A stretch of DNA of 35,616 nt from a virus (IMGVR_UViG_3300014031_000004:1-35616), one strand, 5' to 3'. Positions 12,771 to 35,512 are shown, counted from the stretch's first letter. Numbers and translations: made by a program. The notes: generated by a model from the letters alone, not told the origin.

Positions 12771-12842
12771 TGGGGAGTCGTCTAATCGGTAGGACTGCAG
12801 GTTCTGGACCTGCCTATCTTGGTTCGAGTCCAAGCTCCCCAG
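12771..12842 (+). tRNA. trnQ: tRNA-Gln (anticodon CTG)
   Basis: Acceptor TGGGGAG/CTCCCCA, anticodon arm GCAGG-TTCTGGA-CCTGC, T arm CTTGG-TTCGAGT-CCAAG, G73; CCA not encoded. Confidence 0.95.
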
Positions 12843-12850
12843 CAATAGAG

Positions 12851-13516
12851 TTAGTAAAACTTAAGAAGTGCTCCGAGTTTCTTCTTAATGTCAGTGTATA
12901 CTTCTTCGTCAATGACAACCATTTTGACTTCTGGAAAGTAGATTCTCATTCTTTTGAGTTTAGTAAGACTCTTCGGATCCATCCAACCCTTGACCTCGTG
13001 GTATTCAATAGATCCTGACGATAGAACGACTCTAAAGTCGGGTCGGTATGTTCTTGTGCCTGATCGAATCTTCTCAAACAGAAACGATTCTGGCTCGTAT
13101 TCCCAAGAAATGACCTGTTTTTGTTTTATTAGGAAGTTAAGATATATAGCATAATTCACTTCCCATCTAGAACGAAAGAAATATTCCTTCCCTTCTATCG
13201 TATAGTAGCCTCGATGTACATGACCGAATTTACCAGGGACTTGGATTGATGCTGGTATCTTCCCTTCTAAGGCTTTTGAGATTTTTGAACGAGTTTCACG
13301 AGTAGGGCTGTGACCATCTACGAATCCGAATTTTTCACCCCTTTCAATTCTTCTTGAGTAATTCATCTTTAGTTTCTTTCTTGTCTCATCTGAATGTACA
13401 TGACCTCTCAGCCCCTTGCTTATTGACTCATTATTCTCCTTTGAATGGGTATATACTCCGGTTCTCCCAGCACGACCGCCCTGACCTTTTTTATGTAGAT
13501 AGATTCCACGTCCCAT
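12851..13516 (-). CDS. NUMOD3-repeat PD-(D/E)XK endonuclease (homing-endonuclease-like)
   Basis: HSKENNESIS / HSDETRKKL / ETRSKISKAL repeats; FRSRWE, WEYEP, YRPDF, HEVKG nuclease motifs. Confidence 0.75.
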   Translation of the reverse strand: MGRGIYLHKKGQGGRAGRTGVYTHSKENNESISKGLRGHVHSDETRKKLKMNYSRRIERGEKFGFVDGHSPTRETRSKISKALEGKIPASIQVPGKFGHVHRGYYTIEGKEYFFRSRWEVNYAIYLNFLIKQKQVISWEYEPESFLFEKIRSGTRTYRPDFRVVLSSGSIEYHEVKGWMDPKSLTKLKRMRIYFPEVKMVVIDEEVYTDIKKKLGALLKFY

Positions 13517-13820
13517 ATTTTTTGTTTAATTTAGCTTTCATCATACTATAGTTTATAGACTTTGAGTACCTCTGTATATCTGAATCATTTGCACGATTAA
13601 GCATTATCCAGTCTACTTTTTCTTTAACTCTGACTATGTTAGTATGACAGTGATTACAGAGAGGAAGTATGCACCAGTCTTCATTGACCTGTCTTCCTGC
13701 GAAAATAAGATTATGATGCCAATCTATCTTACCTCCGCAGGAAGGAGTATCGAGGCAGCAAGACTTATAGAACAGATCCTCCGACATCTTCAGTCTTAGT
13801 TTTGGTGGTATTGGTCTCAT
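13491..13820 (-). CDS. HNH-like Zn-binding nuclease (DUF968/Ref-like)
   Basis: CC..C, DWHH, ILPLCNHCH. Confidence 0.6.
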   Translation of the reverse strand: MRPIPPKLRLKMSEDLFYKSCCLDTPSCGGKIDWHHNLIFAGRQVNEDWCILPLCNHCHTNIVRVKEKVDWIMLNRANDSDIQRYSKSINYSMMKAKLNKKYGTWNLST

Positions 13821-16242
13821 TTTCTATTGCTAATTGTTTTTTAGATTTTCGAGGATTTGTCATTCGCGGTTCCTTAATCTCTTTCTTAACTGGTCGATCT
13901 TCAGGAAAAAAGTCAATGTCCGGATAAGCAACCTTAGTGATTCTTTCTAGTATCTTTCTAGTTTTATTTTCCCAGTAGTAATTTCTGTCATATTCACCTG
14001 TGAAGTGCTCGGCAAGTATCCCGTCAATCGTCTTGTCTTTCCCCGTCACAATGTACTCTATCTCGACATTCTTCATTGATTCACCGTTGTTAGCTTTCAC
14101 CAGAGCAGCAAGCTTCACGTGAAGAGGCTGAGTCTTGGCATAGCTTTCTGGCTCTTTCCCTACTTTCTGTATGATAGTGAGCTCCTCCCGGGTGAACTCT
14201 TTGTCATAGAATTCCTTCTTGATGTCTTGCATCACCTTCTTCATGTCTTCCACGTCTGGGGCATCATACAGTACCTTGTTGATGAGGAACTTCTGCTTCT
14301 CAGCTGCAAACCCGAAGGTGTTCTTCTTGATGAAGTCCATTCCCCTGGCATATATCTCATTAGTCTTCTTTCCCTCCATGTTGATTACATGACCCACATA
14401 GGTCTTCTTGGCTATGAGGACGAAAGACTCATACTGCTTGTCAAAGTTGAGCTGGATGAAGCATTCATCTATGTTGAACTTCTCCTTCAGTTCCTTTCTC
14501 AGTGCGCTGTGGAAACCCTCAAGAGTACCGTCTACATCTAGAAAGCCCTTTCCAGTGGCTACAAAGACTGAGTCAGTGTCCCCGTATATCACTTTGTACC
14601 CGATGCTTTCATAGTATCCCTTAGCAAACATGATGCACCACTGCCCAAATAGCGTGATGCTCTCGGCTACATCTACAGAGAAGTACCTTCCGTACTTGAG
14701 TCCCATGATTCCGTATGTCGAGTTAGCAAGCTCTTTCACAATGATCTCATCGGACACAACCATCTCCCAGTTTGTTCCTTTGTTCAATCCCTCTTCAATC
14801 ATCTTCAGCTTCAGCTTCTTATATTCCTCTCTTTTCTTCAATAGTCCAGATACTGCTAGATTCACAACGGAAGGTTCTTTTACAAAATATGTAGGCTTAA
14901 TACCACCAACCTTTCTTTCGATTGACAGAGTACCTGGATTTATGATGCAGTTGTCATCAGCTACGTATCTGAGAGAGTCATATCCGATGTTTGAGGTTCT
15001 CATCATAGATGGATAAAGTGACTTAAAGTCGAACGTATAGACTCGGTCATATTTACCAACAACAGGTTCCAGTACAATGGCTCCCATGTACTGTGCATCA
15101 TCGTCATTTACTTCCTCTTCTTTCTTCAGGGCTCCGGTGTCATCTGGATTCTCATTCCCCCTGGTATTGTCCATTACCCTCTCCTTGATTGCATTGACAG
15201 CAGTCCTTGCAAACTTGTTCACTTGGTGAGCAGTCTTGAGGATGAATGAGTCAATGATAGAATACAGGCCGAACTGGCTGACAGGAACTCCGCACCACTG
15301 AGACTGCCTAATCATCATGTCAGATACTCCAAGCTTCTGATCTAGCTCAAACAGCAGCCTCACGTCTTCCTCGTTGTATACTTTCAGCTTCTTCGGGTTG
15401 TCCCTCCATAGCTCAATGATCTTCTCATCATGCTTCACCTTTCCCTTGCCGAGGAAGTGCTGTGAGATGTTCTCAAGTGAGAATGACTTTATGTGAGAGT
15501 CAAACCTGAAGATGTGCCTGAACCTCTTGAGCAAGTCAAAGTGTCCCATCTTCTTCCAGCAGTAAGCCTTGTCAAAGTGAAGGTCATACTTCTGCATCCT
15601 CTTCTTGAGGTAAGGCACATCAAATCCAGATGAGTTCCATCCCAGCAAGATGTTGTAGTCCTTTATCACCTTCAAGAAGTCTAGCATGAGGTTAGTCTCT
15701 GCTTCATCTGTATGCTCTTTGAGCCGCTTGAAGAACATCTTTCCTGTGTCATCCATAGCAGCAAAGCTGAGTATCCGGTCTCTGCCGATCTCAATCCTCT
15801 GCTCAGTGTCATCAGTCTCAATGTCAAAGTACAGCTTCCTATACTTGTCTGATATGATGACCTCTTTGTCTATGAACCATCTCTTGTCAGGCATGAGGTC
15901 TCCCTCAAACGTCTCAATCCCATTCTTTTCTAGTGTCATTACAAGCCTTCCCCTTGTGACCGAGAAGATCTCTTCTTTTCTTCCAGTAGGTCTCGGATGT
16001 ATCTTGACATAGCCAGGATACTTAGGGTCGTCAAGAAATGCAACTGTCCCAGAATGAGATTCAGACACGATTACCATTGCTCTCTCTTCGTCTTCTTTCT
16101 TTATCGTGAAATACCAGTCAACAGACATCTTGCCCTCACTGCGAACCCCGTTCTCGTCATCATATATTACTCCGATGTCGTTTCCTTTCTTGTAGTTCCA
16201 TGTATGGACCACCTTGACTCTAGGGGTTGCAGTTTGTGTCAT
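13765..16242 (-). CDS. polB: Family B DNA polymerase with 3'-5' exonuclease
   Basis: ExoI FDIETD, ExoII GWNSSGFD, ExoIII YNEED, motif A DFKSLYPS, B KELANSTYG, C YGDTDS. Confidence 0.97.
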   Translation of the reverse strand: MTQTATPRVKVVHTWNYKKGNDIGVIYDDENGVRSEGKMSVDWYFTIKKEDEERAMVIVSESHSGTVAFLDDPKYPGYVKIHPRPTGRKEEIFSVTRGRLVMTLEKNGIETFEGDLMPDKRWFIDKEVIISDKYRKLYFDIETDDTEQRIEIGRDRILSFAAMDDTGKMFFKRLKEHTDEAETNLMLDFLKVIKDYNILLGWNSSGFDVPYLKKRMQKYDLHFDKAYCWKKMGHFDLLKRFRHIFRFDSHIKSFSLENISQHFLGKGKVKHDEKIIELWRDNPKKLKVYNEEDVRLLFELDQKLGVSDMMIRQSQWCGVPVSQFGLYSIIDSFILKTAHQVNKFARTAVNAIKERVMDNTRGNENPDDTGALKKEEEVNDDDAQYMGAIVLEPVVGKYDRVYTFDFKSLYPSMMRTSNIGYDSLRYVADDNCIINPGTLSIERKVGGIKPTYFVKEPSVVNLAVSGLLKKREEYKKLKLKMIEEGLNKGTNWEMVVSDEIIVKELANSTYGIMGLKYGRYFSVDVAESITLFGQWCIMFAKGYYESIGYKVIYGDTDSVFVATGKGFLDVDGTLEGFHSALRKELKEKFNIDECFIQLNFDKQYESFVLIAKKTYVGHVINMEGKKTNEIYARGMDFIKKNTFGFAAEKQKFLINKVLYDAPDVEDMKKVMQDIKKEFYDKEFTREELTIIQKVGKEPESYAKTQPLHVKLAALVKANNGESMKNVEIEYIVTGKDKTIDGILAEHFTGEYDRNYYWENKTRKILERITKVAYPDIDFFPEDRPVKKEIKEPRMTNPRKSKKQLAIENETNTTKTKTEDVGGSVL

Positions 16243-16269
16243 GTTGATTTGTTATTTCTAATGCTTATA

Positions 16270-16812
16270 TTATACCTCGTAGTGGCAGTTGCCGTAAATG
16301 ACCACTAGCTTGGTGACTGAGATACCTGTCTTGTCACCGAACTTCTTCATCATTGAGCCGAAGAATATCATGTCAGGAATGAACTTCTCTACATCCGCAG
16401 ACCTCTGGTACACATACATGTCAAACTCATTCCTGTGAGTCATGACGAACTGCATGTGAGTGAAGCATGGAAGATCTCGATAGAAGTTTGTCCCATTCAT
16501 GACCATCAGCTGCCTGCTGTTTATGCCTTCCTTAGCAGTCTTGGCAGCCTGAGTGAATGTCTTGTACATCCTCTTCCAGTCAGCCTTGAACTTGTCTTCA
16601 GGTTTCTGCTTCTTGATGTAGTCAACTAGCTCAGGATCTTTGAATACCATGAAGTGACCGGGAAGTGCCTTGACATCTCTTCCTGTCCGGTCCTCTTGGT
16701 CAAACCCACTATTGCAGATGTCTACAGTCAGGAGTTCTTTAGCTATTGTAAGCGGCGAGGAACTGTGTGAAGTGCTCGTTGATCGCTTCGGCTCTTTCTT
16801 TGATTTCTTCAT
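16270..16812 (-). CDS. Minimal ThyA-fold protein, putative dCMP-modifying enzyme
   Basis: DRTG, SRQ, LPC, YQRSAD, GNCHY motifs; Asp near the specificity position. Confidence 0.8.
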   Translation of the reverse strand: MKKSKKEPKRSTSTSHSSSPLTIAKELLTVDICNSGFDQEDRTGRDVKALPGHFMVFKDPELVDYIKKQKPEDKFKADWKRMYKTFTQAAKTAKEGINSRQLMVMNGTNFYRDLPCFTHMQFVMTHRNEFDMYVYQRSADVEKFIPDMIFFGSMMKKFGDKTGISVTKLVVIYGNCHYEV

Positions 16813-17794
16813 TTGAGTAGTGGTTAGCTTTTACATCTGCATCATGCTTGTCATAGAGAGTCTTGATAGCATTGAACTGGTCTTCAGTCACCTGAGTAGT
16901 TCCCCAGTAGAACAGGTCCTTGATGGGAGTGTTCGTGAAGTTCATCTGCTCCTTCTTCATCGGATAGAGGAAGTCTCGGTGATGGTAGTCAAACTCATCA
17001 TCCTTCGGAATGTACAGGTTGGTGGACAAGAGGTTAGTCCTGTCTGCGCTTGCCTTCTTCTGGAAGTCGAATGAACCCTTCATCTTAGCAAAGATAGATT
17101 CCATCTCAGGGAATACAGCACACACTGCCTCCTGCATCTTCCTAGCAATCTCATTTATCTCCCATGTCTGGCTACCGTCATCAATCCTCTTCTTGTAGAA
17201 GAACAGTAGAGTTGACAAGTCGATCTTCATGAAGATGAAAGTCTCTAGGTTGTGAGGAGTGATAGTCCTTGCAGCCTGGATTGAGACCTTGAATGAGTCA
17301 TTCATCTGTGCATAGCTCATCTTAGTAGCTAGAGTAGCATCAATGAATCCCTGGAGAAGCATAGGGTCTTGTGCAATGCATTCCTCAACTAGAGCGTCAT
17401 TGTGAGAGAGGAACCTGTCACCTGTGCACTGCTGGCTGAATGTGACACCTATTCTCTGCCTTACTATCTGGTGAGTGTCAATTCGAGTGATTCCAGAGAT
17501 GCGGAAGATGAAGTTGATAGTCTCAAGTCCCAGTCCAAGTGCCTTTCCACCGAACATCTGGTCAAGAGCATGCTCCATCTCCTCATGTGAGGCTCGTGAT
17601 GATTCCATGCCGTCTTCGCTCCATGTAGCCTTGACGAAGTCATACGTTCCCTTCATCATCTCTTCTTTGTCATCATGCTTGATGAGGTCTACCTTGATAG
17701 AATTCCTGTAGTCCTTGAACCTTGTGAGGGGCTTCTGTCCGAATAGTATTCTGAACTGGTGGTGCTTTGGTATCAATTCTGGTATATGCGGCAT
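16739..17794 (-). CDS. thyX: Divergent ThyX-like flavin-dependent thymidylate synthase homologue
   Basis: LE..NFIFRISGITR..THQIVRQR....SQQC, AR...P, KKR, Q.WEI motifs. Confidence 0.75.
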   Translation of the reverse strand: MPHIPELIPKHHQFRILFGQKPLTRFKDYRNSIKVDLIKHDDKEEMMKGTYDFVKATWSEDGMESSRASHEEMEHALDQMFGGKALGLGLETINFIFRISGITRIDTHQIVRQRIGVTFSQQCTGDRFLSHNDALVEECIAQDPMLLQGFIDATLATKMSYAQMNDSFKVSIQAARTITPHNLETFIFMKIDLSTLLFFYKKRIDDGSQTWEINEIARKMQEAVCAVFPEMESIFAKMKGSFDFQKKASADRTNLLSTNLYIPKDDEFDYHHRDFLYPMKKEQMNFTNTPIKDLFYWGTTQVTEDQFNAIKTLYDKHDADVKANHYSNEEIKERAEAINEHFTQFLAAYNS

Positions 17795-17804
17795 TTGCGT
17801 GTTG

Positions 17805-18587
17805 TTAAATTGACAATACTAACAGTCGTGCCTCGACATAGTCGGCCTGATTTTTAAACAAAAAAGGCAATGATACGACTTTATCATAATACACTTTAGG
17901 GAAGAGTTTTTTAAGTCTATCAGTAATTCCTCCTACTACCGCGGGTGAATTGAATTGAAGTAGGTCCAGATTACGCATCTCATTACAATCAATGAAGTCT
18001 ACTGGTATATCTACTATCGGGCTCTTTCCTGCATTTTTATAATGAATCTCAATTGCAAGAAATCGTAATCCTTTCTTTTTTGCATACCCGAAGTCGAATT
18101 CATATTCACTACCTTCACAATCAATCTTCATCATCGTCGGTTGGTATTTATCAATGATGCTCTTAAAACTAATCGTCTCAATGTTTTTAACCTCATAGTA
18201 CCTATCCAATGTATTCTCATGTTTGTATGTACGGCCATACAATGAATTCATACCATGTTTTCCTCTCTTTGACACACGGAACTGTCTAGGTTCTCCATCC
18301 CCGGTTATTGCAATGTTATGGTCTTCAATCTTGCAATTATAATTTTGCTCTTTTAGCAAGCTAAATGCATATTCACCTGGCTCATACATTACAATACACT
18401 TAGGTTTTTTTGATGATATCATACTACTGACAATTCCAATGTTTGCACCGATGTCGATAATGACATCATCTTCAGTAATGTTTTCTATAAAGGGTTCATA
18501 TTCTTTTTCCATTTCCCGTATCTCCTTCATTGACATTACATTTAGGTCAGTCAAGACCTTTCCATACCGGGTTTTTACTTCTTTCAT
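17805..18587 (-). CDS. FkbM-family SAM methyltransferase
   Basis: IIDIGANIG, YEP, MKIDCEGSEY, IEIH motifs. Confidence 0.9.
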   Translation of the reverse strand: MKEVKTRYGKVLTDLNVMSMKEIREMEKEYEPFIENITEDDVIIDIGANIGIVSSMISSKKPKCIVMYEPGEYAFSLLKEQNYNCKIEDHNIAITGDGEPRQFRVSKRGKHGMNSLYGRTYKHENTLDRYYEVKNIETISFKSIIDKYQPTMMKIDCEGSEYEFDFGYAKKKGLRFLAIEIHYKNAGKSPIVDIPVDFIDCNEMRNLDLLQFNSPAVVGGITDRLKKLFPKVYYDKVVSLPFLFKNQADYVEARLLVLSI

Positions 18588-18593
18588 GATGTT

Positions 18594-18791
18594 TTACTTA
18601 ATTATGAACTTTCCCTTCTTGTCTCGCTTCACTCCAGCCTGCTTCAAGTGATATGACACACCGTTTGCAGTCAGTCCGTAAGCATCTCCGATCTGCCTTA
18701 GAGTAGGTGTGTATCCTAGCTTCTTCTGCATCTTGCCGATGTCTGCTACTACGTCCTTGTTAAGCTGTGTGATTGACTTCTTTGTTGACAT
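18594..18791 (-). CDS. Small LexA-DBD-like HTH protein
   Basis: GYTPTLRQIGDAYGLTANGVSYHLK matches LexA N-terminal HTH; no peptidase domain. Confidence 0.75.
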   Translation of the reverse strand: MSTKKSITQLNKDVVADIGKMQKKLGYTPTLRQIGDAYGLTANGVSYHLKQAGVKRDKKGKFIIK

Positions 18792-19197
18792 GTTGGTTTA
18801 TTATTGATGATTTATATAATTCCGGCTCATATGACCCACAGACTACCAGCTTTATTTCCAAACTGGGAAACATCACTGGAAGGTCTTTCTCTAACTGGCT
18901 CTTCATTCTCATCTGGTCATAACCTATGAGAATTGCATCAGGCTTGTATATACGTATCTTTGACCATGGACCCAGTCTAGCATCCCCTCGATACACATGC
19001 CTGACATGATGCCTGACACCTGCAACTCTCTGCTTCATAGTCCTTATCGGAGCATGGCCCTTTAGCATCATGACGATAGAGTCTTGAGCTATGCAAGCCA
19101 TTACCCGACCTCCTTTAGCTAGCTCATGTGCCTTGCTAAACAGGTATCTGTGACCCTCGTGAATTCCATCGAATGTCCCGAAGATCATGACTCTCAT
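18760..19197 (-). CDS. HIGH-family nucleotidyltransferase (RibL-like FAD synthase / cytidylyltransferase)
   Basis: MRVMIFGTFDGIHEGH, AQD..V..LKG, KPD...GYDQ, KSS; start reassigned to ATGA overlap at 19197. Confidence 0.8.
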   Translation of the reverse strand: MRVMIFGTFDGIHEGHRYLFSKAHELAKGGRVMACIAQDSIVMMLKGHAPIRTMKQRVAGVRHHVRHVYRGDARLGPWSKIRIYKPDAILIGYDQMRMKSQLEKDLPVMFPSLEIKLVVCGSYEPELYKSSIINQHVNKEVNHTA

Positions 19198-20132
19198 AGC
19201 TTTGCATTGATTGCCTGATGAATCACATGTTCTGTAGTGACCCCATAAAGCCATTGTGCAAATCGACCGCTGAAGACAATATTCTCATTGGGTGGGCTAT
19301 TGTCCTCATTCTCGAATATCCTTCCCTGCTTTACTGTGAAGATGTCTTGCACAGTCAGATCAGGATACAGTTCTTCAAACTTCTCTCTAGTCATCTCACC
19401 TGTTATCTCAATTGCCCAGACATCTCCCATGTGAGAGATTCTAGAGAATGGGACAGAGTCATCATAATAGCACATCTCATATCTTCCGTCAAAGCAAGGC
19501 GGCTTGTTCTTGACAATGACATTAGTGATAGGAAGGCACCTGAACTCACCCTTCTCTTGGCCGTATGCTTTCCAGAAGAAAGGAGCAGCCATAGTTGAGA
19601 TTATCTTAGAATACGGCTCATGGTGAGTCAGGTCAGACTTGAAGTCTGTCTTATACTGGAGCTCAGCTGAGTCAATCTTAGTCACAAACCCACTGATCGG
19701 ATTGTCATTCTTCTCATTGAGCCTCTTGACAACTTCCTCAAGGTCTACATCTAGGCAGTTCATGTAGTTAGTACCTCCAGTGGATGACATGCTAAGCTCC
19801 TTAGTCTTGGGGACAAAGTCTGTGTCAACTGGCTTGTCCCATGCTGTCATCTTCTTCTGAATCATCATGAGGTTCATGTCAGTTGTCAGGTTGTCATTGA
19901 GCCATCCCTTGTAGTAGTAACCTATGTAACTCTTCTTAGTCTTGATCGGCAGACCCAGATCGACCAGGAGCTTCCTAGTCTCAAAAGTGTCATGGAACCA
20001 CACAAGGTAAGTCTTTGCATAATTACCTCCAGCAATGTCAGGAGAGATGATCTGGAATTCTGGATGATAGTACTTCCATATCAGTCCGCTGATTCCTGAA
20101 CCGATTATATAATTTCCTTTATTTTCTTGCAT
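19194..20132 (-). CDS. FAD-dependent oxidoreductase (UGM/amine-oxidase-like Rossmann fold)
   Basis: IIGSGISGL dinucleotide-binding motif, IISTM, C-terminal GRFAQW. Confidence 0.75.
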   Translation of the reverse strand: MQENKGNYIIGSGISGLIWKYYHPEFQIISPDIAGGNYAKTYLVWFHDTFETRKLLVDLGLPIKTKKSYIGYYYKGWLNDNLTTDMNLMMIQKKMTAWDKPVDTDFVPKTKELSMSSTGGTNYMNCLDVDLEEVVKRLNEKNDNPISGFVTKIDSAELQYKTDFKSDLTHHEPYSKIISTMAAPFFWKAYGQEKGEFRCLPITNVIVKNKPPCFDGRYEMCYYDDSVPFSRISHMGDVWAIEITGEMTREKFEELYPDLTVQDIFTVKQGRIFENEDNSPPNENIVFSGRFAQWLYGVTTEHVIHQAINAKL

Positions 20133-20605
20133 ATCTGCTCAGGTTTTAGGTTTTTAACATCTATCACTGTCCAATTCAGTGCCCTAGCCATAGAGACATA
20201 AGTCTCTGTGACCTTCTTGTGAAACTTAGAATCGACCAGCTTGTCCTCAGCTCTAGGCTTGTTCCTGTATAGGATTACGACCTTCGGCTGGAGAGCTTTC
20301 TCTACCTTTGTCAAGTACTTCAAGTCATAATGCCTGTCAAACACCCAGCTATACACCATGCTGCTAGGGAAACCCCTGTCACAGATGAAGCTAGTGTCTC
20401 TGAACTGTGCAAGAGTCTTGTTGAATATCTCTGAAGCCTCCTCTGGATTCCCTTTGAAGTACTTCGGCATGTCTTTCATCTTGATGACAGGGAGCTTCAA
20501 GTCTCTAGCCAATAGCTTTATGACTGTAGTCTTTCCTACTCTGTCCGGTCCGTCTATGATGAGATGGAGGGGTCTAGTTGATTGCATTTTTAAGATGTTG
20601 CTCAT
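20105..20605 (-). CDS. dNMP (thymidylate-type) kinase
   Basis: IIDGPDRVGKTT P-loop and ICDR motif. Confidence 0.85.
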   Translation of the reverse strand: MSNILKMQSTRPLHLIIDGPDRVGKTTVIKLLARDLKLPVIKMKDMPKYFKGNPEEASEIFNKTLAQFRDTSFICDRGFPSSMVYSWVFDRHYDLKYLTKVEKALQPKVVILYRNKPRAEDKLVDSKFHKKVTETYVSMARALNWTVIDVKNLKPEQICKKIKEII

Positions 20606-21383
20606 ATTCTTCTATGGTGACTTCTCCATCTACAAGTCTTTTAAGTGAATCGACCTTTGTGATGTGGATAGAAGGGAACCGCATGAAGAATTCTTGAGAA
20701 ACCTCATCACCTACTGCAATGATCTTCATGTTGAGATAGTCTTCACCCATCAGCACTTCTAGTTCTTTCTCAAGGAATTCCCACCAGAAGGTCACAAGAT
20801 TCTCATCAACTTCTGTACCCGGTATTGCTTCTTTGACAATAGCAGTCATGTAAGTGTCTTTCATGATTCCAAGATTCTTCAGTACACCTACAAGACCCTT
20901 GACCAACTCTGACCTTTCGTCACCGCCGTATATCTGATGATGTATTATGAAGATGTACTTGGGTGACAGGCTTCCTACTCCAGTCATCTTAGTCTCTCCC
21001 GGGATCTTCAGTATCTCACTGTTGATGACATTCATCTTCTTCATCTTGACCTTTTCTACATTGTGCTTCTGAGTAGCCTCAATAGTATCTACAAGTTCCT
21101 CGATGGAGAACTTCCAGATGTTTATGAAGTTGACAAGGAACAGAATCACATCTGCAAGCTCTTCTTTCACCCTAGTCAAGTCTGCTGTCTTCTGTGACTT
21201 GCTGTACGGATTAGCTACTGAAGGGAATTCCTTTCTCAGTTCTACGATCTCCTCTATCATCTTGAAGAGGTACTTCTCTGACATCTCATTCCTCTCGCTC
21301 TCGAGGATAGTGTCTACAGGATACTTTACCAGCCTCTGGAACTCTTTCTGCTTCTTTGCAATGCTCTTGAATCTCTCGATCAT
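20574..21383 (-). CDS. All-alpha NTP pyrophosphatase (dimeric dUTPase/MazG-like) fused to degenerate UDG-like domain
   Basis: EEIVEL...EELADV motif; C-half follows family-4 UDG pattern (G.G...K.IFI, TYMT.IVK, FL..EL..L, KIIAVG). Confidence 0.7.
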   Translation of the reverse strand: MIERFKSIAKKQKEFQRLVKYPVDTILESERNEMSEKYLFKMIEEIVELRKEFPSVANPYSKSQKTADLTRVKEELADVILFLVNFINIWKFSIEELVDTIEATQKHNVEKVKMKKMNVINSEILKIPGETKMTGVGSLSPKYIFIIHHQIYGGDERSELVKGLVGVLKNLGIMKDTYMTAIVKEAIPGTEVDENLVTFWWEFLEKELEVLMGEDYLNMKIIAVGDEVSQEFFMRFPSIHITKVDSLKRLVDGEVTIEEYEQHLKNAIN

Positions 21384-26452: not shown

Positions 26453-26647
26453 ATGCACACAAACAAACCAAAGAAGGACACTATCGTCACTACAAATGTC
26501 CAGAAGAAAGAGTTCAAGTATGCCAAGGGTGCTGTCAACTTAGCATTCGTGCTAAGGACTGACGTAGACAGTGAGATGACAGTTTTCGTTGAGTTGATGA
26601 AAGCTGCAATCAAAGACTTAGAAACAGAGATTAAGAAGCTAAAGTGA
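26453..26647 (+). CDS. Hypothetical protein
   Basis: Intact ORF, GTGA overlap with RNA ligase. Confidence 0.6.
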   Translation: MHTNKPKKDTIVTTNVQKKEFKYAKGAVNLAFVLRTDVDSEMTVFVELMKAAIKDLETEIKKLK

Positions 26648-27915
26648 AGATAGACAAGCCAGCTAACTCAAACTACTGTGCAACTGTAGTTGAGCTGAAA
26701 GCTATCATCCCTCTAGAGAACTGTGAGAATGTAGTTGCAACTCCGATCTTCGGCTTTCAGGCTATAGTGAGCAAAGATGCTAAAGTAGGTGACCGCGGAA
26801 TTGTATTCACTGCTGAGACTCAACTGTCTGATGAGTTCTGCTTCTACAACAACCTATACAGACATGCAGACAAGAACAAAGACGAGGGTCAGAAGGGATA
26901 TATCGAGGACAACAGGAGAGTGAAGGCAATCAAGTTCAGGGGAAACGTGTCTAACTGTCTCTTCCTGTCTCTTGAGTCTCTTAGCTATATAAATGTAGAT
27001 CTTTCCCTCTTAGATGTGGGAGATGAGTTCGACACTCTTTCTGGAAAAGACATCTGCAAGAAATACGTAGTTGAATACAGCGGACGAAAGAGAGAATTCG
27101 TAGCAACTGAGAAGAAGTTCGTTCGAGTAGAAGACAAGCATCTTCCCCAGCACATGGACTCAAGCAACTACTTCAAGTGGTCTGACACCATTGATCCTTC
27201 TTCGACTGTGATAGTGTCTCAGAAGCTTCACGGAACCTCTGTGAGAATCGGACACACTATTGCAAAGAGAAAGATGAAGCTAGTTGAGAGGATTGCTCAG
27301 AAGCTTGGTGCTAGCATCCTCCCACACACGTATGACTACGTCTACGGAAGCAGGAAGGTCATCAAGGATGTGAACAACCCATACCAGAATCACTTCTATG
27401 AGACTGACATCTGGAGTGAGCAGGGAAAGAAGCTCCAGGGACTACTCCCTGAGAACTATCTAGTATACGGAGAACTCATTGGCCACACATCTGACGGAAA
27501 AGAGATCCAGAAGAACTACACTTATGCAATTCCGCAGAGGCAGACTGAGTTGTACATCTACCGGATTGCTATTGTCAACCATCAGGGAAATGTCACTGAC
27601 CTCTCATGGGACCAGGTCATGGAATTCTGCAAGAAGAACGGGCTGAAGCACGTGCCTGAATTATGGAGGGGAAAGAAGAAGGACCTCAAGATTGAGGACT
27701 ACATTGACAAGAGGTTCTTTGAGATGGGATACAGGAATACTCTCTACCTCGGAGTGAATGAAGACATTGTCGACGAGGGAGTCTGCATACGAGTTGATGA
27801 ACTCTCTCCTGTCATCATGAAAGCAAAGTCTCCGAGGTTCTTTGAGCATGAGACTAAGTTACTAGACAAGGGAGAAGTCGATCTAGAGTCTTCCCAATCT
27901 TCAGAAAATGTCTAA
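26644..27915 (+). CDS. RNA ligase (Rnl2/DRB0094-like, N-terminal OB domain)
   Basis: Motifs I KLHGTS, III YGELIG, IV EGVCIR, V KAKS. Confidence 0.85.
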   Translation: MKIDKPANSNYCATVVELKAIIPLENCENVVATPIFGFQAIVSKDAKVGDRGIVFTAETQLSDEFCFYNNLYRHADKNKDEGQKGYIEDNRRVKAIKFRGNVSNCLFLSLESLSYINVDLSLLDVGDEFDTLSGKDICKKYVVEYSGRKREFVATEKKFVRVEDKHLPQHMDSSNYFKWSDTIDPSSTVIVSQKLHGTSVRIGHTIAKRKMKLVERIAQKLGASILPHTYDYVYGSRKVIKDVNNPYQNHFYETDIWSEQGKKLQGLLPENYLVYGELIGHTSDGKEIQKNYTYAIPQRQTELYIYRIAIVNHQGNVTDLSWDQVMEFCKKNGLKHVPELWRGKKKDLKIEDYIDKRFFEMGYRNTLYLGVNEDIVDEGVCIRVDELSPVIMKAKSPRFFEHETKLLDKGEVDLESSQSSENV

Positions 27916-28765
27916 GATGATAATCATGCAGGGTCTTCCTGCATCTGGAAAGACTACTGAAGCTAGGAAGATCATGGAAGCTTCAGGCAACTATGTGAGG
28001 ATAAACAAAGATCTTCTAAGGTCAATGCTTCACTTCAGCAAGTTCACTTTCAAGAATGAAGATGTAACTAGGATTGCTGCCAAGTCACTTGCAAGGTCAT
28101 TCCTCATGACAGGACACTGCATCATCATTGATGATACTAATCTCAATGGAAAGACTTTTCAGACATGGAAGGACTTAGCAATGGAATGCAATGCACCGTT
28201 TGAGGTGAAGAGAGTTGACACGCCGTATGATGAATGCATCAGGAGAGATGCTCTCCGCCCTGACAGTGTGGGAAAGGATGTCATCATGAGAATGGCTATG
28301 CAGAACGACCTCATAGGAGACATCGGACCCGTGGTCCTGTGTGACTTAGATGGGACTCTATGCGACTGTGAGCACCGGAGACACTGGCTTGATGGTGCTA
28401 AGAAGGACTGGAAGGGATTCTTCTCAGAGATGAGCAAGGACCCCGTGAGAGAAGAGGTAAGAGAAATGCTCATGAGTTCTTACTACCTCGGATACAAGAT
28501 CATCTTCGTGTCAGCAAGGCCAGAGGACTACAGGAAAGAGACTGAAGAATGGCTGCTGAAGAACTGGGGTGACAACTACTTTGCTCTTATCATGAGGCCT
28601 TCTGGAGATTCTCGGCCTGACACTATAGTCAAGAAAGAGATGCATGAAAAGTACCTCAAGAAGCTTGACATCCAGTGTGTGTATGATGACAGGCCTTCTA
28701 TCGTCCAGATGTGGAAAGATCTTGGACTCAATGTGACTGATGTCGGAGACGGCAGAGAATTCTAA
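27908..28765 (+). CDS. pseT: Polynucleotide 5'-kinase/3'-phosphatase
   Basis: GLPASGKTT, INKDLLR, IIDDTN kinase; CDLDGTL, SAR, YDDR HAD phosphatase. Confidence 0.92.
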   Translation: MSKMIIMQGLPASGKTTEARKIMEASGNYVRINKDLLRSMLHFSKFTFKNEDVTRIAAKSLARSFLMTGHCIIIDDTNLNGKTFQTWKDLAMECNAPFEVKRVDTPYDECIRRDALRPDSVGKDVIMRMAMQNDLIGDIGPVVLCDLDGTLCDCEHRRHWLDGAKKDWKGFFSEMSKDPVREEVREMLMSSYYLGYKIIFVSARPEDYRKETEEWLLKNWGDNYFALIMRPSGDSRPDTIVKKEMHEKYLKKLDIQCVYDDRPSIVQMWKDLGLNVTDVGDGREF

Positions 28766-35089: not shown

Positions 35090-35512
35090 ATGCAGACCTT
35101 CCTACCGTATGAGTCATTCGAGAAGTCTGCCGAAGTTCTGGACAACAAGAGGTTGGGAAAGCAGAGAGTAGAATGCCTCCAGATACTTCAGGTTCTCAAG
35201 AAAGGAGATAAAGCTAAGGGGTGGAAGAATCATCCAGCAGTCAAGATGTGGAAGGGTCATGAGACTTGGCTTATTTCATATGGTGTCTCAATATGCGATG
35301 AATGGATTCAGAGGGGATTCAAAGATTCTTGCAGAGTCAAGATAGAGAATCTAGTCAATTACTCTAAAATCTCTTCTTATCCACCTTGGCTAGGAAATAG
35401 AAAGTTCCACACGTCTCACAAGTCTAACCTACTGAGGAAAGACATTACTCATTATTCAAAGTTCTTCAAATGCAAGGAAGATTACCCATATGTCTGGCCG
35501 ACTAACAACTAA
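35090..35512 (+). CDS. Pyrimidine-dimer DNA glycosylase-like protein (MSMEG_6728 family)
   Basis: MQTFLPY, LD.KRLGKQRVE..QI, GW.NHPA..MW.G, PPWLG, SH.SNLLRKD, YVWP. Confidence 0.85.
   Translation: MQTFLPYESFEKSAEVLDNKRLGKQRVECLQILQVLKKGDKAKGWKNHPAVKMWKGHETWLISYGVSICDEWIQRGFKDSCRVKIENLVNYSKISSYPPWLGNRKFHTSHKSNLLRKDITHYSKFFKCKEDYPYVWPTNN

Follow-up and report, generated by a model that had tools for sequence, protein, structure and literature searches.

Phages are known to carry modified pyrimidines made in several ways. In the T-even phages gp42 is a hydroxymethylase, and RB69, DLP3 and RL38JI have flavin 5-hydroxy-dCMP synthases (PMC13326640). Phage SP-15 has a ribose-labelled dihydroxypentyl-uracil and an orphan second ThyX (PMC5977210), and the common kit of thymine-modified phages consists of a dUTPase, a deaminase, a uracil-DNA glycosylase (UDG) and a thymidylate synthase (TS) homolog (PMC13697223, PMC12686479). 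The DNA of the Pbunaviruses F8 and 14-1 contains thymidine derivatives of 362 and 390 Da, read as sugar-type, which make up about a quarter of the T and occur in TG; in the available portion of Yee et al. the genes for them are unassigned (10.1101/2025.03.31.646159). The origin of the carbon chain in sugar- and polyol-linked pyrimidines (SP-15, YerA41, Carin-5 and the therapeutic Pbunaviruses) is an open question. Here we describe a gene module that bears on it, found at positions 13765-21383 of the viral contig IMGVR_UViG_3300014031_000004:1-35616, the whole 35,616-base stretch of which we call the window.

The core of the module is six genes: a pyrophosphatase with a UDG domain, a kinase, a flavoprotein resembling UDP-galactopyranose mutase (UGM), a ThyX paralog, a miniature ThyA (mini-ThyA) and a polymerase. 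Dozens of unrelated viruses, which between them use three polymerase families, share this gene set, and in the window locus the ThyX/mini-ThyA pair and the ThyX/mini-UGM pair are joined in one operon. The module is a widespread, apparently undescribed variant of pre-replicative pyrimidine replacement. We consider it probable that the product is a non-canonical pyrimidine of some kind. Our specific proposal, a tentative one that we rate somewhat short of an even chance, is that the six genes form a pre-replicative route to a sugar-bearing uracil nucleotide that replaces part of the thymine in phage DNA. Such a route would be independent of folate and of any known sugar transferase, and its purpose is likely to be escape from host nucleases. 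The first-pass annotation of the window knew of no characterized pathway with this gene set, and our literature search, with subscription journals mostly outside its coverage, likewise found no paper describing it; PMC8989533, in the portion available, deals with a different flavin lyase.

The locus and its conservation

Family scans of the window ORFs (open reading frames) recognized tail, lysis, replication and terminase genes, indicating a tailed phage. The module region holds nine ORFs, all on the minus strand in one tightly packed run, in which neighbors overlap or lie at most 27 bases apart (gaps of -32, -28, -61, -32, +6, +10, -74 and +27). Their coordinates and order, checked on the sequence, are those of the first-pass annotation. 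No portal or major capsid gene was recognized among the 52 window ORFs scanned, so the record of 35.6 kb probably lacks several kb; the two closest complete relatives measure 42.8 and 45.9 kb.

Related loci were drawn from viral, metagenome and genome collections, and 60 were retained, with no contig represented more than once. Repeat fetches (nine) and loci reached by a route other than the flavoprotein (four) were excluded, and the set still includes a few phages that are nearly identical to one another. The locus profiles were built from the same loci, so presence counts are in-sample. In the 38 loci that extend 3 kb or more downstream of the flavoprotein gene, a ThyX-like gene is present in 37, mini-ThyA in 30, the pyrophosphatase in 29, the kinase in 29, the UDG domain in 27, a family B DNA polymerase (PolB) in 18 and an NAD sugar epimerase in 10. 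The pyrophosphatase is found in 32 of the 36 loci that have upstream room. Eight of the 38 loci run the module without a nearby mini-ThyA, one of which (L016) has a mini-ThyA elsewhere.

In close relatives the genes run from pyrophosphatase through kinase, flavoprotein, an optional epimerase, the ThyX paralog and mini-ThyA to PolB. Distant relatives have Pol III alpha or PolA, often with the pyrophosphatase fused to the flavoprotein, and their extra genes include radical SAM enzymes, methyltransferases, HD or HAD nucleotidases, dCMP deaminase and GT2 (family 2 glycosyltransferase) genes; the complete relative G407 has a UDP-glucose dehydrogenase. Many other contigs show this gene order, so it is not due to chance. 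Pyrophosphatase, synthase homolog, kinase and own polymerase are found together, the gene combination of T4/SPO1-type systems. The neighborhood search recovered the co-occurring set with all six core genes co-conserved across loci, and the locus counts, together with the residue comparisons below, support the first-pass proposal of a conserved pre-replicative pyrimidine module beside a polymerase, with two altered TS folds.

The ThyX paralog

The core ThyX paralog (16739-17794, minus strand) matches PF02511 at 8e-20, above the Pfam cut-off, and scores 50.9 bits against the NCBIfam thyX model TIGR02170, below its cut-off of 87.9; it has 147 close matches, query included. In Thermotoga maritima numbering, assigned by motif alignment, His53 is replaced by Thr, His79 by Gln, Ser88 by Cys, Arg90 by Gly and Tyr91 by Asp, so the protein reads RQR...QQCTGD where canonical ThyX has RHR...ELSGRY, and LET in the region of His53, which we take to have a role in folate use. 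Arg78, Arg80, Arg147 and Arg174 are kept, and the dUMP-binding set (R112, R114, R176 and R203) is invariant in 73/73 sequences. In a tree the paralog belongs to a clade of its own (22 rows, support 100/99) in which Arg174 is kept in 22/22 rows and Arg90 in 0/22, compared with 8/8 controls for Arg90.

In ThyX, Arg174 activates dUMP, and utilization of the flavin (methylene) carbinolamine is driven by three residues, Ser88, Arg90 and Tyr91 (PMC8316439). Given the kept arginines and the replacement of these three residues, the nucleotide side of the active site looks intact and the carbon-donor side rewired. ThyX also takes free formaldehyde onto flavin N5, which the authors of that study liken to the flavin-galactose adduct of UGM (PMC8316439). 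The paralog is not a housekeeping copy, because the phage at L013 also carries an ordinary ThyX and another Thy1 gene is present in 5/5 operon-bearing genome bins. From the sequences, neither TS fold of the module is likely to be a plain dTMP synthase.

The UGM-like flavoprotein

The small core flavoprotein (19194-20132, minus strand) has the fold of an enzyme using flavin adenine dinucleotide (FAD). No Pfam or PHROG model matched the window protein, and the GLF/UGM family model likewise did not. Its structure was predicted with a pLDDT of 93.8, and a full structural search placed Trypanosoma cruzi UGM first (Z 23.4, root-mean-square deviation 2.9, 294 aligned residues). With a profile of 37 flavoprotein sequences, the best PDB sequence was Aspergillus fumigatus UGM (E 1.8e-4). 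The alignment places Tyr222 and Arg231 at the UGM motifs WLYF and FYRA; the two residues are kept in 142/149 and 144/149 family members, and their equivalents are presumably substrate-site residues of UGM. The protein had been called an FAD oxidoreductase; the FAD-enzyme fold is retained, and structure prediction and profile change the identity to UGM as best match. The likeness to UGM points to sugar chemistry.

The flavoprotein has 82 close matches, query included, and belongs to an unnamed family of 1,043 clusters at E 0.001 and 253 at 1e-30. Fusion partners among 50 members scanned are a DXD glycosyltransferase and a deoxyribonucleotidase, in one member each, and a dUTPase_2 domain, in four. 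When the flavoprotein and two relatives were searched with tblastn against 50,697 cultured phage records, the flavoprotein domain was unmatched, and it took PHROG 4828 and a broad profile to reveal the cultured homologs. A tblastn match in Streptomyces phage Zuko was set aside, as it covers the pyrophosphatase only and not the flavoprotein. Zuko gp73-78 (L059 9091-15620) encode a kinase, a pyrophosphatase, a 353-aa protein, a cytosine-type TS homolog, a dCMP deaminase and PolA, and from their sequences are a candidate for another base-replacement cluster, unrelated to the window core.

Among the 52 window ORFs scanned there is no glycosyltransferase, aGPT-Pplase or deazaguanine family, which bears out the earlier statement that the window lacks DNA glycosyltransferase, aGPT-Pplase and 7-deazaguanine genes. 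No glycosyltransferase family was found either in the complete relatives G407 and G419, where the scan covered 71 of the 86 ORFs; the 15 outside it are module and replication genes. It is mainly because sugar-nucleotide enzymes are present without a recognized transferase that we place the joining of the sugar at the nucleotide stage; the window or its relatives may have a DNA glycosyltransferase that was not recognized.

The miniature ThyA

The core mini-ThyA (16270-16812, minus strand; PF00303 2e-7) is a cytosine-type enzyme of 180 aa that has the TS fold in structural comparison and keeps the TS catalytic set Cys146, Arg166, Ser167 and His207. Relative to ThyA, about 47 residues are deleted (the folate segment, approximately residues 55-100 of E. 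coli ThyA), and the chain ends past His207/Tyr209, so that the C-terminal lid or tail is missing. We take the deleted segment and the tail to be the ThyA folate site. Cys146, Arg166, His207 and an Asp at the Asn177 position (D147) are invariant in 29/29 mini-ThyA proteins. An Asp at this position is a mark of dCMP enzymes, and Asp169 changed to Asn is the signature of 5-hydroxy-dCMP synthases (PMC13326640). The window protein reads RSAD; since Asp169 is kept it does not carry that signature, and an RB69-type hydroxylase identity was rejected for it. Asn at this position was found only in L001, L073 and Geobacillus phage GR1. Two mini-ThyA proteins are fused to an HhH-GPD (MBD4-like) DNA glycosylase (L010 12299-13192 and L064 3896-4762). 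As work on DNA methyltransferases indicates, a cysteine-activated cytosine without cofactor could deaminate or add an aldehyde; our literature search found no published source for such cofactor-free deamination or aldehyde addition.

The cytosine marks allow a different account, on the base that the first-pass annotation took as the probable target, which we think unlikely yet worth setting out: the mini-ThyA would activate dCMP and, needing no folate, add a carbonyl compound at its C5, the ThyX paralog would reduce or finish the adduct, the pyrophosphatase would be a T4 gp56-like dCTPase/dUTPase and the glycosylase would remove deamination products. The dCMP determinant in all 29 mini-ThyA proteins (PMC13326640) and the glycosylase fusions at L010 and L064 favor this account, and the Cys and Asp that replace Ser88 and Tyr91 in the ThyX paralog could suit cytosine. 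At L064 a canonical dCMP deaminase lies inside the module alongside the mini-ThyA; the deaminase was counted in favor of a uracil product, and we infer from its presence that this mini-ThyA needs another job, as the cytosine account would provide. The CpG ratio of 0.50 in the window is in the same direction, though it runs from 0.32 to 0.95 among module carriers, and dinucleotide and palindrome bias was discarded as evidence on the modified base, CpG being low but variable. A product based on cytosine is harder to reconcile with the Arg174 kept in the ThyX paralog, with the eight of 38 loci that run the module without a mini-ThyA nearby, and with the related cultured phages of measured DNA, which modify T.

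Pyrophosphatase, kinase and polymerase

The remaining core genes are also on the minus strand. The one at 20574-21383 encodes an all-alpha dNTP pyrophosphatase (dimeric dUTPase/MazG type) with a degenerate family-4-like UDG domain. The pyrophosphatase is the N-terminal ~120 aa (MazG 2e-4 and dUTPase_2 1e-3 in Pfam, phrog_173 3e-9), and the C-terminal UDG-like domain scores 54 bits with a profile of relatives. The UDG-like fusion of the first reading is thus real as a domain, but the window copy lacks both catalytic motifs (G-Q-N-P and H-P-S), which are kept in 21/21 other UDG domains. The dNMP kinase (20105-20605) is thymidylate-kinase-like (PF02223 3e-8, phrog_761 7e-16). The PolB gene (13765-16242; PF00136 4e-49) has intact exonuclease and polymerase motifs, at positions 140, 207, 289, 405, 503 and 553. 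It had been described as dedicated to the module; the phage does have its own polymerase beside the module, but strict dedication does not hold, as relatives use PolB, Pol III alpha or PolA.

Polymerase-free copies in genome bins

A polymerase-free operon lies amid chromosomal genes in several genome bins, four of which bear the label Patescibacteria and two the label Gammaproteobacteria. It contains a flavoprotein-pyrophosphatase fusion, the ThyX paralog, kinase, mini-ThyA, UDG and sometimes GT2 and NUDIX genes. The operon is rare, with 1 strong match, the seed genome itself, in 401 genomes of the phylum sample, and five weak matches besides. If the strictest version of the proposed route, given below, is correct, the polymerase-free Patescibacteria copies would mean that some bacteria make the modified nucleotide too. 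As a separate observation, loci L052-L056, L058 and L061 (for example L053 7971-13054), from Patescibacteria bins, have the polymerase-free module with an intact UDG and a NUDIX gene; the L053 copy adjoins GT4, phosphotransferase and GT2 genes, and the L061 copy is downstream of a type ISP restriction-modification gene.

A chromosomal copy would fit a module that is an ordinary supply line from dCMP through dUMP and dTMP to dTTP with uracil surveillance, serving a nucleotide-poor Patescibacteria host and leaving the DNA unmodified. The thymidylate-kinase-like kinase and dUTPase-like pyrophosphatase are compatible with this, no other ThyA was found in the complete relatives, and ThyX can use formaldehyde (PMC8316439). 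We nevertheless regard ordinary supply as very improbable: the methylene-transfer residues of the ThyX paralog are replaced, carriers keep a second Thy1 gene, the UGM-like and other sugar enzymes are out of place in dTMP synthesis, and the operon is present in only 1 of the 401 sampled genomes of the phylum.

Cultured phages

Geobacillus phage GR1 (L002, OK896991 23909-36703) has a ThyX paralog (E 6e-36) directly followed by a mini-ThyA (E 2e-14), in a neighborhood with a kinase, an HD nucleotidase, a deoxyribosyltransferase-like gene, a nitroreductase and an alpha-glucosyltransferase. From its genes, GR1 DNA is probably modified; the available portion of the GR1 paper (PMC10237291) does not address DNA modification. 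The GR1 mini-ThyA carries the Asp169 to Asn hydroxylase signature, and this, with the nitroreductase and alpha-glucosyltransferase nearby, fits a further explanation in which the TS folds make a 5-hydroxy- or 5-hydroxymethyl-pyrimidine handle, the reduced flavin coming from the ThyX paralog. The flavoprotein would in this case be a true mutase and would provide the furanose donor that an unrecognized DNA glycosyltransferase uses, as in RL38JI. Flavin-dependent 5-hydroxy-dCMP synthases and UGM do co-occur in RL38JI (PMC13326640), and GT2 genes are present in L053, L058 and L071. For the window this explanation seems quite improbable, with Asp169 kept in a mini-ThyA that is without the pocket segment and with no glycosyltransferase family in the scanned ORFs of the window or the two complete relatives.

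F8 gp65 and 14-1 gp66 are distant members of the flavoprotein family, scoring 27.6 and 28.4 bits when the best of 500 shuffles scored 6.4. A distant flavoprotein homolog is present in 362 records (Pbunaviruses and relatives), near a His53-less ThyX of another clade, and in Cronobacter phage Ss1 the flavoprotein homolog and ThyX are adjacent. SP-15 was considered as a direct carrier and dismissed, as it has no match to the flavoprotein, the window ThyX clade or the mini-ThyA, and we use it as an analogy only. Three phages unrelated to one another, SP-15 (L089 28730-31911, gp127-130), L006 (8355-10243) and GR1, have a deoxyribosyltransferase-like gene close to a divergent ThyX; its product could supply the carbon donor by releasing a pentose phosphate.

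Proposed route

We infer each chemical step of the route to a sugar-bearing uracil nucleotide from the gene content, folds and residue changes that we observed. First, the pyrophosphatase, together with the UDG domain in relatives, would keep dUTP and uracil out of DNA while dUMP remains high. Second, and this is the weakest step, the mini-ThyA would bind dCMP, attack C6 with its Cys and, having no folate pocket, deaminate dCMP to dUMP. Third, a UGM-like flavin-N5 adduct would let the flavoprotein rearrange or open a nucleotide sugar. Fourth, the ThyX paralog would use the sugar carbonyl instead of methylene or formaldehyde, giving a C5 carbon-linked sugar or polyol. Fifth, optional enzymes (epimerase, UDP-glucose dehydrogenase, radical SAM enzyme or methyltransferase, here FkbM) would vary the sugar. 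The modified nucleotide would enter phage DNA through the action of the kinase and polymerase. The strictest version, in which the whole route is flavin-only, with the ThyX paralog joining a C5-sugar from the mini-UGM, a folate-less ThyA fold acting on dCMP and no glycosyltransferase, we hold to be doubtful. If true, it would explain the 362 and 390 Da bases of Pbunaviruses as dU+134, a C-linked pentitol, and dU+162, a C-linked hexose. The module would add new chemistry to both TS folds, and a polymerase accepting bulky C5 groups. The gene set is small and defined (~5 kb without the polymerase) and expressible in E. coli, and the two TS folds are available in a cultured phage, GR1.

Several observations weigh against this route. 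In the structural search protoporphyrinogen oxidase came second (Z 21.1, 2.3 below UGM), Foldseek ranks amine oxidases level with UGM, and the C-terminal Tyr of UGM is kept in just 11/149 family members. In the ThyX clade His53 is kept in 3/22 rows and is absent from 2/8 controls (present in 6/8). If the mini-ThyA replaces the canonical deaminase, the two should exclude each other; the deaminase is present in 0/5 near-complete mini-ThyA records, but over all records it is in 1/11 with mini-ThyA versus 4/12 without, which is not significantly exclusive (p 0.32), and at L064 the two coexist. GR1 has the two TS folds and an alpha-glucosyltransferase, and a search of its genome found no flavoprotein homolog. 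The Pbunavirus link is distant, since profile-profile alignment (hhalign) aligned only the N-terminal 28 columns at a probability of 61%; the Pbunavirus ThyX is outside the window clade and keeps Arg90, no mini-ThyA was found in DL60, and the partial, TG-linked modification suggests a post-replicative step. SP-15 gp130 is also outside the ThyX clade.

Other genes in the window

Three accessory genes, on the minus strand, complete the nine-gene run. The RibL-like nucleotidyltransferase (18760-19197; PF01467, PF06574), predicted to be a likely FAD synthase, has the HxGH nucleotidyltransferase fold and the size of RibL. Its start is more likely at 19197, where the overlap with the flavoprotein stop is ATGA. 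Its nearest Atlas clusters are RibL-type or cytidylyltransferase-like and mostly from Patescibacteria, and it is probably a host-derived insert, judging by sequence; as to the phage host, this Patescibacteria-like gene is a pointer, a hint and no more. A small LexA-type helix-turn-helix protein (18594-18791; PF01726 2e-5) has sequence matches in 2/60 loci. The FkbM-family methyltransferase (17805-18587; TIGR01444 2e-12) is a possible optional tailoring enzyme. Its GC is 0.355, and its GC at third codon positions (GC3) is 0.345, far below the 0.52-0.61 of the core, making it a recent insert; in L066, L068 and L071 other, unrelated methyltransferases occupy the same position after the flavoprotein. 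The RibL-like gene and FkbM had been listed as parts of the system, a view we abandon, as both are found in 0/60 related loci and the GC3 of FkbM is out of line with the core.

Elsewhere in the window, an RNA ligase and polynucleotide kinase-phosphatase pair (26644-28765) likely serves as tRNA repair counter-defence, and a tRNA-Gln(CTG) gene (12771-12843) lies where two transcription directions meet. Downstream of the polymerase, 12851-13516 encodes a NUMOD3 and PD-(D/E)XK-type nuclease, a resolvase or homing endonuclease. A pyrimidine dimer DNA glycosylase gene (35090-35512; PF03013, E 1e-26) lies past the terminase.

Comparison with known systems

The cytosine replacement systems of T-even phages and of RB69, DLP3 and RL38JI share with the window a ThyA fold with Cys146 and Asp177, a pyrophosphatase, a kinase and their own PolB (PMC13326640), and RL38JI has a UGM, as the window has a UGM-like gene. 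In contrast to these types, the window mini-ThyA has 180 aa, no folate segment and a kept Asp169, the ThyX paralog is an obligatory partner in the module, and no DNA glycosyltransferase was found in the window. SP-15, Carin-5 and YerA41 have a C5 polyol-type linker on uracil (made at the triphosphate stage in SP-15) or sugar-linked thymidines (PMC5977210, PMC12686479, PMC13697223). Their dUTPase, UDG and deaminase context is like that of the window, and SP-15 has gp130 as a second, orphan ThyX-like protein, whereas their large glycosyltransferase clusters are unlike the window. In the Pbunaviruses F8 and 14-1 the annotated stretch contains neither a kinase nor a UDG gene, unlike the window, but like the window these phages have a flavoprotein homolog near a His53-less ThyX and a polymerase, and there a sugar-type pyrimidine has been measured.

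At the level of single enzymes, the flavoprotein shares with UGM (T. cruzi 4DSG, A. fumigatus 3UTE) the fold, GxGxxG, the conserved Tyr and Arg, and GRF-x-x-W, while being ~160 residues shorter than T. cruzi UGM and 12% identical to it. With canonical ThyX (T. maritima TM0449) the window paralog shares the fold and the dUMP-binding arginines, but it is rewired at the RHRxxxxxxxS/SxRY motif and has a 110-residue C-terminal extension.

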